A stretch of DNA of 64,000 nt from Escherichia coli (GTDB taxonomy: Bacteria > Pseudomonadota > Gammaproteobacteria > Enterobacterales > Enterobacteriaceae). The stretch lies in NCBI RefSeq assembly GCF_030384885.1, contig NZ_CP128613.1. One strand, 5' to 3'. Shown piece by piece: positions 22,301-25,300 of the stretch. The position numbers are program-made. Within the stretch, counting starts at the first letter, position 1, and every line of letters starts with the position of its first letter.

Positions 22301-25300
22301 TGTCAGCGTCTGTTTGCCTTCCTCTACGACGGTGCCGACACCAGTTGGCGTGAGAAAACCACCAAGTCCAGCTCCACCACAGCGAATTTGCTCAATCAAT
22401 GTACCTTGCGGTACGAGAACGACCTCCATTTCGCCAGAAATCATGCGCCGTCCGGTTTCCGGGTTGGTGCCGATATGTGAAGCAATTACTTTGCGGACTC
22501 GACCATTGACGATGAGCGGACCGATGCCGGTATCAACAAACGCGGTATCATTGGCTATCAATGTCAGGTCGCGAACGCCAGATTCCAGTAATGCTTCCAC
22601 CAGGCGGGATGGAGTGCCAATTCCCATAAATCCGCCCACCATGATGGTCATGCCGTCACGAAAGAAGCCGGAGGCGTCTTGTAATGTCATCAATTTTGTT
22701 TTCATTATTTATCCCTCTTGCATACACCGTTGTGGGTACAGTCAGGGAATAGCAAGGGGAGTGCCAGAATGAAAATGTTTGATATTGTTTTTTAATTCAT
22801 TGAATAGTAAAGAATAAATAAGGTGGAGATTAAGAGGCTGAATGAACGGCTATGCAGAAATTTGCGCACTGTGCAAATTTCTGCATAGCAAGTTTTGGTG
22901 TTATACATCCGCCGGATCGATACCGTATTCCTGGAGTTTATACATCAATGCACGGCGACTGATGCCCAGCATTAAAGCAGTGCGGGTTCGGTTTCCTTCT
23001 TGTTGTTCCAGCACTTCCATAATGATGCGTTTTTCGACGCGTTTAATTTCCTCTTTTAAATTACGCTCACCGACAGGGGCTGTTTTTGCTTCACCAGCAT
23101 TACAGACTGGCTGACGAATCTGCGGCGGAAGATCCTCAGAAAAAATGATCGGGCCTGAATTCATCACGACGGCGCGTTCAATAACGTTGGAAAGCTCTCG
23201 AATATTTCCCGGCCATGACCATGCGGTAAGCAGCGACATTGCCATCGGATCGATGTCGATAATATCGCGCTGATTCTCACTACTGAATTTTTGCAAAAAG
23301 TGATTAGCTAAGAGGGAAATATCTTCCCGACGATCGCGCAGAGGCGGCAGTATTAAATGAATAACGTTAAGGCGATAAAAGAGATCTTCACGGAAGGTGC
23401 CTTCTTTTACCATTGCCTGCAAGTCACGGTTGGTGGCTGCAATGATGCGGATATCAACTTTTATGGTCTGATGGCCGCCAATCCGTTCAAATTCCCGTTC
23501 CTGCAGAATGCGTAGTAATTTGGCTTGCAGTACCAGCGGCATTTCGCCAATTTCGTCGAGGAGCAGAGTACCTTCGTTGGCACGTTCAAATAATCCCTGA
23601 CGTAGGGTTTGTGCACCAGTAAATGCGCCTTTTTCATGACCAAACAGTTCACTTTCGAGCAACGATTCCGGCAGCGCCGCGCAGTTGACTTTAATAAACG
23701 GCCCCTTGGCCCGCCGCGAATTGTAGTGAATCGCTCTGGCAATCAACTCTTTCCCGGTGCCGCTTTCACCGCTAATCAAGACGCTGGCCTGAGAAAGGGC
23801 AATTTTGGCGGTGTCTTTGCAGATGTCCATCATTGCCGGGCTGTTAGTGAGAATGTGCCCCCATTGCCAACTGGTGCTTAGTGCCTGGTGCAGATGACGG
23901 ATCTCTTTTTTCATTGACTGGAGTTGTAAAGCGCGCTGAACGATTAAATTCAACTCATCGAGATCAAACGGTTTGATAACATAGTCAAAGGCTCCGCAGC
24001 GTAGTGCTTCGACGGCGGTTTCTACTTCAGCATAGGCCGTCATCAGAATAATGGGGGTCCGTGTCTCATGGCTGCGCATCTCCTTGAGTGCCTTGATGCC
24101 GTCCATCTCTGGCATGCGGATATCCATCAACACCACGTCAGGGTGAATATCGGCAAACAGGTGTAATGCTGTGCGCCCGTTGTTCGCACAATGTGTTTCG
24201 AATCCTTGTAGTGCAAAAGCGGTGCTCAGCATACGGCGAACATTATCTTCATCATCCACAATAAGGATGCGATTAATAGCAGTCATACAGTCTGATTTCC
24301 CTGCGGGTTGATCGGTAAAATAAGCGTGAAGGTTGCGCCGTAGCCCGGCAAACTGGCGACGCGAATATCACCCTGATGGGCATTAATGATGCGTTGACTT
24401 AACGCCAGACCAAGCCCGGTTCCTGAGGCTTTGGTAGTGAAAAAGGGATCGAAGATCTTTTTTTGCAGCGAGAGATCAATGCCACTGCCGTTGTCCTCTA
24501 TCGAAATGGCCTGTTGTGAGTCGCTATACTGCCAGGTTCGAATGCGAATTTTCCCTCGTGCACTGATAGCCTGGACGGCATTGATCAGGATATTCAGTAG
24601 TACCTGTTTGAGCAGTTCACGATCGGCGCTAATCGGGCTTAATTCATTATCCAGTTCGCTTATGAAGTCGACTCGCGCTTGTACGCCGGCGGTTTGTACC
24701 AGTACCAGAGTTTCTTCAACCAATGCATTGAGGCTGACTTGTTGCCATTGACTGTGGCGTGGGCGTGAAAATTCGAGCAATTGCTGAATAACTTTGTTAA
24801 TTGAATCGATTTCTTTGAGTACTACGGACAGATATTCCTGATGTATTGGGTCACTGGTTTGTTGGCGCAAGATCTGTACATAACCACGAATAGCCGTTAA
24901 CGGATTACGTACTTCATGCGCCACGCCAGCCATCAGCTCACCCAGTGTGGCGAGGCGTTCAGCTTGCGCCATGCGGCGCTGGGTTTCTTTGCGGGCAGTT
25001 AAATCAGAGAAAATCACCAAAGCACCTATCATTTCACCATGCGTATTATGAATACGACTGGTAGTGACACTGAGTTCAATGGTGCGCTCACGGCCTGGAA
25101 AACTGATCTCCAGCGCCACATGTTCGGTACCATGTTCCAGCGTATCCAGTACTGGACTGTAGAACGGAGTATTGTCGAACAACATGGAGTAAGGCTGCCC
25201 TACCAGTTCATGACGTTGATAGCCAGTGATGACTTCTGCTGCCGGGTTCATGGTGGTTACATCACCCTGGCGGTCAATGGCAATGACGCCATCGGCAGCG

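Follow-up and report, generated by a model that had tools for sequence, protein, structure and literature searches.

An AtoC-type palindrome and a sigma-54 promoter element upstream of atoDAEB in a divergent lineage of Escherichia coli

Results

Organisation of the ato locus

The window analysed in this work is a stretch of 64,000 nucleotides of Escherichia coli DNA. It contains six ato genes in the order atoS-atoC-atoD-atoA-atoE-atoB that are co-directional on the minus strand (Table 1). The RefSeq annotation of strain 2013C-4282, which is identical here, concurs with these gene calls. The region from 22706 to 22900 is the exact gap of 195 bp between atoC and atoD. An earlier note on this DNA described atoC and atoD as divergent. 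This description is incorrect: the gene calls, the NCBIfam matches, and the RefSeq annotation all place both genes in tandem on the minus strand.

Table 1. Features of the ato locus in the window and their coordinates.
Feature	Position	Strand	Remarks
atoS	24283-26121	minus	NCBIfam model, 989 bits
atoC	22901-24286	minus	NCBIfam NF008469 AtoC equivalog, 1003 bits (cut-off 714)
AtoC upstream activating sequence (predicted here)	22849-22889		41-bp palindrome, two 20-bp half-sites, centre 22869
Half-site 1	22889..22870	minus	GCTATGCAGAAATTTGCACA
Half-site 2	22849..22868	plus	GCTATGCAGAAATTTGCGCA
IHF-like site	22793..22805	minus	ATTCAATGAATTA; 12/13 match to WATCAANNNNTTR; ~-65..-53 from predicted start
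Sigma-54 promoter core	22767..22751	minus	CTGGCACTCCCCTTGCT; exact consensus match
Predicted transcription start	22740..22743	minus	From -12 geometry, OS21 value 35, and footprint numbering
atoD 5' leader	22706..22739	minus	Shine-Dalgarno AGAGGG at 22718..22713
atoD	22043-22705	minus	NCBIfam NF007394, 443.8 bits; first gene of atoDAEB
atoA	21393-22043	minus	NCBIfam model match
atoE	20074-21396	minus	NCBIfam model match
atoB	18859-20043	minus	NCBIfam model match

The window is 100% identical to E. coli 2013C-4282 (NZ_CP027579.1; human stool, USA) across the 401 bp around the site and across the 20 kb at 30000-50000. Nearly all of the other complete E. coli genomes are 95-99% identical across the same 20 kb and only ~93% identical across the 401 bp. 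The strain therefore comes from a divergent E. coli lineage.

The 5' leader of atoD is not predicted to form any significant structure (-3.8 kcal/mol, z = +0.84). The plus-strand ORF at 22842-23114 (90 aa) was deemed spurious; it is intact in K-12 too, yet this is uninformative because the ORF lies on the strand opposite to the 3' end of atoC, which is itself strongly conserved.

The sigma-54 promoter element and the predicted transcription start

The earlier note reported TGGCAC-N5-TTGCT on the minus strand. This element is present as TGGCACTCCCCTTGCT at 22766..22751, and the C that precedes it extends the match to CTGGCACTCCCCTTGCT. It has 0 mismatches to TGGCAC-N5-TTGCW and its GG doublet (22765/22764, -25/-24) and GC doublet (22753/22752, -13/-12) are exactly 10 bp apart. 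The consensus TGGCACNNNNNTTGCW has a single exact match when both strands of the 64 kb are searched, and that match is CTGGCACTCCCCTTGCT. The element is co-oriented with atoD, with 47 nt from the C of its GC doublet to the ATG. The sigma-70 scan of the 195-bp gap did not identify any sigma-70-like promoter on the sense strand.

The motif of OS21, a sigma-54 site from K-12 ChIP-seq that was assigned to atoD and has been listed as previously confirmed (Bonocora et al., 2015, PMC4591121), consists of this same 17-mer. The spacer between atoC and atoD of K-12 also carries a gSELEX peak of the RpoN holoenzyme (Shimada et al., 2021, PMC8743547). By analogy with K-12, the sigma-54 holoenzyme would occupy CTGGCACTCCCCTTGCT in this strain.

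The transcription start is predicted at 22740 if C22752 is the -12 position, which would give a 35-nt leader. The entry for atoD in the OS21 table carries the value 35 (PMC4591121), which we interpret as the spacing from the gene start. The two numberings of the site can be compared through the palindrome described below. AtoC reportedly footprints two 20-bp stretches at -146..-107 in K-12; if the palindrome spans these positions, +1 would be 22743.

The AtoC palindrome

The palindrome starts 11 nt past the atoC stop codon. It contains a perfect 17-bp inverted repeat with arms at 22849-22865 and 22873-22889 and 7 bases between them. The arms extend to 20 nt, of which 19/20 are complementary, around one central base. 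The -24 G lies 105 bp downstream of the palindrome centre, in agreement with the distance of about 100 bp that had been proposed, and 81 bp separate the facing edges of the palindrome and the promoter core.

The K-12 counterpart is an experimentally verified inverted palindrome of 40 bp, through which a sigma-54-dependent promoter is induced by acetoacetate. AtoC binding and acetoacetate-dependent activation have been reported there from work with ChIP, EMSA, and mutated promoters (Pilalis et al., 2011, PMC3118216). The ChIP-positive AtoC sites in K-12 are GCTATGCAGAAATTTGCACA at -184..-165 and GCTATGCAGAAAATTGCGCA at -163..-144 from the ATG (PMC3118216). The palindrome in the window matches the verified K-12 site at 40/41 positions and occupies the same -184..-144 offset (22889 = ATG+184). 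Half-site 1 is identical to that of K-12 and half-site 2 matches at 19/20 positions, where AAAATT in K-12 has become AAATTT here. The 17-bp arms are therefore perfect owing to this single T-to-A change.

The AtoC activator

AtoC has a receiver domain (residues 7-115; PF00072, Response_reg), an AAA+ domain (145-311; PF00158, Sigma54_activat), an AAA lid (317-394), and a Fis-type HTH_8 domain (415-454; PF02954) according to Pfam. The translation has the GAFTGA loop motif at residue 220, so the adjacent atoC does encode an AAA+ domain with GAFTGA as previously suggested. AtoC thus has all the domains of the response-regulator class of bacterial enhancer-binding proteins. It differs from K-12 AtoC by 2 residues. 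Against the equivalog model for NtrC, AtoC reaches 476 bits, which is under the cut-off of that model.

Conservation within Escherichia

The 195-bp gap can be aligned with that of K-12 without indels. The stretch from the atoC stop to the palindrome exhibits 0/11 differences, the palindrome 1/41, and the -24/-12 element 0/16, while the stretch from the -12 element to the ATG, part of which precedes the predicted start, exhibits 2/45. The spacer between the palindrome and the -24 element exhibits 23/82 differences (28%), compared with 150/1198 (12.5%) at the 4-fold degenerate sites of the six ato genes. The modules, with 3/102 differences, diverge less than both the spacer (Fisher p = 9e-7) and the 4-fold sites (Fisher p = 0.002), and the spacer diverges more than the silent sites (p = 3e-4).

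The window, K-12, E69, and E1V33 were compared in a four-way Escherichia alignment. The -24/-12 element is unchanged across these four lineages. The sole conserved island in the diverged spacer is WTTCAATNNNTTA (22805..22793), which is the IHF-like site on which the earlier note did not remark. The consensus WATCAANNNNTTR is weak, with 63 matches across the window against 51 expected. An IHF-like match is found 38-56 nt upstream of TGG in 6/8 other taxa with a -24/-12 match, and two Symbiopectobacterium-type loci have an exact match to WATCAANNNNTTR. IHF is said to be required at the K-12 atoDAEB promoter. We infer that IHF would bind at 22793-22805. A second IHF-like match at 22784..22772 was dropped since it is not conserved in K-12.

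Conservation across genera

The degenerate AtoD-motif scan, in which one genome per species was used, yielded 38 loci. Ten of these loci, all from other taxa, have atoC directly upstream of atoD. They belong to Escherichia (two loci), Symbiopectobacterium (two), a Serratia-labelled genome, Morganella (two), Photorhabdus (one), a Holophagaceae MAG, and a Firmicutes MAG. The -24/-12 element is present in each of the ten, with the GC doublet 42-50 nt ahead of the start codon. All Enterobacterales loci have a TGCRCA-N(1-2)-TGYGCA core that precedes -24 by 104-140 bp. Escherichia sp. E1V33, Symbiopectobacterium, Morganella, and Photorhabdus share the same module order. The -24/-12 element alone was found in the Holophagaceae and Firmicutes MAGs.

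The outer palindrome arms of Escherichia (GCTATGCAGAAATT...) and Symbiopectobacterium (TGAGAAGGAATT...) have many differences, yet both are perfectly symmetric. Such symmetric drift of the arms is what would be predicted for a site bound by a dimer of identical subunits. Morganella and Photorhabdus exhibit symmetry that is confined to the 6-bp core. The 17-bp repeat claimed in the earlier note is perfect, but the 7 bp between its arms were wrongly called a spacer: the symmetry runs through these central bases, which are the best conserved across genera and are therefore considered part of the recognition site. The sequence comparison suggests that this stretch is the heart of the AtoC site, with the core TGCRCA-N-TGYGCA.

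The distance between enhancer and promoter differs among the genera (105, 120, and ~138-140 bp), which means that no strict helical phasing has been kept. The arrangement as a whole is one of conserved modules, namely the palindrome core, the IHF-like site, the -24/-12 element, and the 5' UTR, that are set in a fast-diverging spacer.

Composition of the spacer

The sense strand at 22848..22741 (108 nt) is 66% pyrimidine and has 30 C against 7 G (C/G ratio 4.3). Its pyrimidine share and its C>G bias are each in the top 0.2% of windows of the same size in the 64 kb. The C/G ratio is 3.6-6.8 in K-12, E69, and E1V33 despite the 28% sequence divergence.

The pyrimidine runs CUCCCCUU and UUCCCU, located within and immediately ahead of the promoter core, show complementarity to the atoD Shine-Dalgarno. 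These runs are missing from the sigma-54-initiated transcript and present in read-through RNA. The predicted accessibility of the atoD Shine-Dalgarno falls from 0.85 in the sigma-54 transcript to 0.17 in the read-through RNA, where it pairs with CUCCCCUUGC of the promoter core. The accessibility falls likewise in 8/8 loci, and the largest drop among 15 control genes is 0.66. Specific pairing with the Shine-Dalgarno was rejected since dinucleotide-shuffled upstream sequence gives the same value (mean 0.17). The shuffled sequence sequesters the Shine-Dalgarno equally, and the effect is therefore one of composition.

Discussion

Alternative explanations for the palindrome and the promoter element

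The palindrome may instead, or in addition to binding AtoC, terminate or stabilise the atoSC transcript by folding into an RNA hairpin. The sense-strand RNA does form a 17-bp hairpin (-26.7 kcal/mol, z = -6.75) in the prediction, and apart from it the terminator scan picked up nothing resembling a terminator in the atoC-atoD gap of Escherichia. Morganella has a separate hairpin with a U9 terminator upstream of its AtoC site, and the 108 nt downstream of the palindrome in the window resemble Rho-utilisation tracts in being rich in C and poor in G. However, the hairpin on the sense strand is followed by CCGUUCAUUCAGCC, which has no U-run, and the terminator scan calls the plus (antisense) strand only; the palindrome is thus not an intrinsic (Rho-independent) terminator in the sense direction. 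The long hairpin is not conserved either. Morganella and Photorhabdus keep the core of the protein site and are symmetric in those 6 bp only, which argues against a conserved hairpin function. AtoC binding to this palindrome sequence has also been experimentally established in K-12 (PMC3118216). We consider the hairpin explanation unlikely.

Both motifs could also be chance consensus matches that are functionless in this strain. The expected number of exact matches to TGGCACNNNNNTTGCW in shuffled windows is 0.11, and 11/100 shuffles have at least one. The match in the window, however, lies in the correct gap and orientation, 47 nt before the ATG, where by proportion from the shuffles only ~2e-4 matches would be expected per 195-bp gap. 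It also stays unchanged across Escherichia lineages in spite of the 28% divergence of their spacer. The window has no longer perfect inverted repeat than this palindrome, whereas in 20 first-order Markov randomisations the longest arms measured 8-11 bp and none reached 17 bp. Both motifs further match the sites that are experimentally bound in K-12, with an identical 17-mer and 40/41 palindrome positions. The conservation and identity data effectively refute chance matching, which is left with almost no credibility.

A dispersed repeat, such as a REP/BIME-like element or the terminus of a mobile element, could likewise account for a long, near-perfect, intergenic palindrome in place of a dedicated operator, but this origin is extremely improbable. 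Each of 3559 complete E. coli genomes has the palindrome at a single place, bar one genome with two; the window has no second copy of the core beyond chance (3 sites at <=3 mismatches including the true site against 2.26 expected); and no Rfam family reaches the threshold. The Rfam scan of 22000-23600 at a permissive threshold returned two sub-threshold microRNA-hairpin artefacts on the palindrome and nothing else. The form of the palindrome in the window is found in 16 of the 3559 genomes and a form with one mismatch in the other 3543.

Proposed mechanism of atoDAEB activation

The 195-bp gap is almost certainly the atoDAEB promoter region (atoDp), where sigma-54-dependent transcription is activated by AtoC from the palindrome. 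The earlier note had proposed the same activation by the adjacent AtoC, and this proposal is well supported by a 17-mer that equals the OS21 motif and by half-sites that are identical to, or 1 nt off, the verified sites. The promoter elements, their identity with K-12, the AtoC domains, and the conservation are observed in the sequences compared here, and AtoC binding and induction by acetoacetate are drawn from the K-12 literature.

An enhancer-binding protein that acts on a sigma-54 closed complex is the standard bacterial enhancer mechanism. On this model, sigma-54 RNA polymerase would form a closed complex on CTGGCACTCCCCTTGCT. AtoS would sense acetoacetate and phosphorylate AtoC. Phospho-AtoC would then bind the two 20-bp half-sites at about -149..-109, with the centre ~129 bp upstream of the start, and its AAA+ oligomer would form there. 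The AT-rich spacer, which is probably bent by IHF at ATTCAATGAATTA, would loop AtoC to the polymerase. ATP hydrolysis and the contact of the GAFTGA loop with sigma-54 would open the promoter, and transcription would begin ~35-38 nt before the atoD ATG, at a start that is inferred for this strain.

The composition of the spacer may in addition be kept to insulate atoDAEB from read-through of the co-directional atoSC, a suggestion that we regard as speculative and somewhat improbable. Two routes can be envisaged. Rho could load on the untranslated C-rich RNA, or the CT-rich runs could pair with the atoD Shine-Dalgarno such that only the transcripts started by sigma-54 would be translated. The C>G tract could be read equally well as a site of Rho-dependent termination or as a CT-rich insulator. 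The insulation idea is unproven and serves as a lead only.

Significance of the findings

The main value of this work is that of a positive control, where a textbook sigma-54 enhancer-promoter pair was recovered from the raw sequence alone. The comparison across genera adds further detail on both elements. The AtoC core is TGCRCA-N-TGYGCA and its outer arms drift, symmetrically so between Escherichia and Symbiopectobacterium. The distance between the promoter and the ATG is held at 42-50 nt in 10 loci, and the distance between the enhancer and the promoter is not conserved. The C>G bias that is kept in a fast-evolving spacer between two tandem transcription units is a lead on the question of how sigma-54 operons under tight control avoid read-through from upstream.

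Comparison with known systems

The two elements form the AtoC/sigma-54 control region of atoDAEB that has already been described in E. coli K-12 (Matta et al., 2007, as cited in PMC3118216), and this region is near-unchanged in the divergent strain. Both strains exhibit the same gene order, a gap of 195 bp, and an identical 17-nt sigma-54 motif. They also share the palindrome at 40/41 positions and the stretch from -12 to the ATG at 43/45, and their AtoC proteins are 2 residues apart. K-12 differs in the one mismatch within half-site 2 of its palindrome and in the 82-bp spacer, which is 28% different.

CT-rich insulator segments have been reported inside sigma-54 promoters such as glnKp (Levy et al., bioRxiv 10.1101/086108). 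The atoD promoter is similar to glnKp in having pyrimidine runs near the promoter core that are complementary to the Shine-Dalgarno. Unlike at glnKp, the folding effect at atoD is purely compositional and the insulation is predicted only.

The NtrC systems of the glnAp2 and glnHp2 type are also similar, where AtoC exhibits the same layout of receiver, AAA+ (GAFTGA), and Fis-type HTH domains. NtrC-type promoters have their enhancer ~100-150 bp upstream with dyad sites that contain TGCAC, as is the case at atoD, and the DNA loops to bring the activator to the closed sigma-54 complex, aided by IHF at some promoters such as glnHp2. In contrast to the NtrC systems, the signal of AtoC/AtoS is acetoacetate and not nitrogen status, and the site has an AtoC-specific sequence in which two 20-bp sites are fused into a palindrome of 41 bp.

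Spacer divergence and composition bias upstream of atoD

Of the 82 positions in the spacer that separates the AtoC palindrome from the -24 element, 23 (28%) are different in K-12. This rate is more than twice the rate at the 4-fold sites of the ato genes, where 12.5% are changed (p = 3e-4). The modules that flank the spacer differ from K-12 at only three of 102 positions. The coordinates of the features are shown in the table.

Features of the ato locus and its homologs
Feature	Coordinates	Strand
ato locus	window 18859-26121	
Spacer (palindrome to -24)	window 22767-22848	minus (sense)
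Composition-biased stretch	window 22741-22848	minus (sense)
Variant palindrome position	window 22860	A on minus (sense), T on plus
Terminator-like site (palindrome, then AAGTTTTGGT)	window 22849-22899	plus (antisense)
90-aa ATG ORF	window 22842-23114	plus
atoD Shine-Dalgarno sequence	window 22713-22718	
Predicted partner in promoter core (CUCCCCUUGC)	window 22744-22762	
Holophagaceae promoter region (L022)	about 9800-9990	
Morganella psychrotolerans terminator (L020)	1775-1830	

The biased stretch, which includes the spacer, is 66% pyrimidine with a C/G ratio of 4.3 (30 C, 7 G); both values are among the highest 0.2% for windows of 108 nt. The ratio of the same stretch is 4.7 in K-12, 6.8 in the E69 lineage, and 3.6 in the E1V33 lineage. 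The bias is strong and conserved although the sequence has diverged.

Predicted accessibility of the atoD Shine-Dalgarno sequence

In the sigma-54-initiated RNA, the atoD Shine-Dalgarno sequence has a predicted accessibility of 0.85. In the read-through RNA, where its predicted partner is the promoter core, this value decreases to 0.17. The decrease has the same direction in all eight loci. Shuffled upstream sequence gives the same accessibility value as the real read-through sequence.

Palindrome variant and antisense strand

At the variant palindrome position, the sense-strand base of K-12 is T, and the 17-bp palindrome arms are perfect because of the change in this lineage. The exact 41-mer is common to only 16 of the 3559 complete E. 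coli genomes that have the site. On the antisense strand, the palindrome and the sequence that follows it have a terminator-like score, and no plus-strand gene ends there. The ORF starts within the gap and is antisense to the 3' end of atoC. It is also intact in K-12, which is expected because atoC is conserved, and it is probably spurious.

Distribution of the ato locus and its control elements

Among the complete E. coli genomes, only 3924 out of 5426 gave a match to the atoC-atoD junction, therefore about 28% appear to lack the junction or to have a rearranged locus. In Ca. Symbiopectobacterium endolongispinus, the tblastn matches to atoS, atoC, atoD, atoE, and atoB are all split or truncated. 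This pattern suggests that the five genes are pseudogenes in this symbiont. Its palindrome and -24/-12 element are intact, as is its IHF-like site, which matches the consensus exactly. The ato control regions of 'Serratia marcescens' 1001295B and Symbiopectobacterium (L024) differ very little, which could reflect a mislabelled Serratia assembly or recent transfer. A Holophagaceae MAG (Acidobacteriota) has an atoS-atoC-atoD-atoA cluster with a TGGCAC-N5-CTGCA promoter, where the AtoC-like half-sites (TGCGCAAGTTCC ... GAAATTGCGCA) are everted (opposite orientation) and about 20 nt apart.

Comparison with known arrangements

The composition of the biased stretch resembles that of a rut tract or a CT-rich insulator. 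Both Morganella psychrotolerans loci (L020 and L006) exhibit a classical hairpin and U9 terminator (-18 kcal/mol, z = -5.95) that is located after atoC and before the AtoC site. The C/G ratio of the Morganella psychrotolerans spacer is only 1.2, which is the opposite of the Escherichia arrangement.
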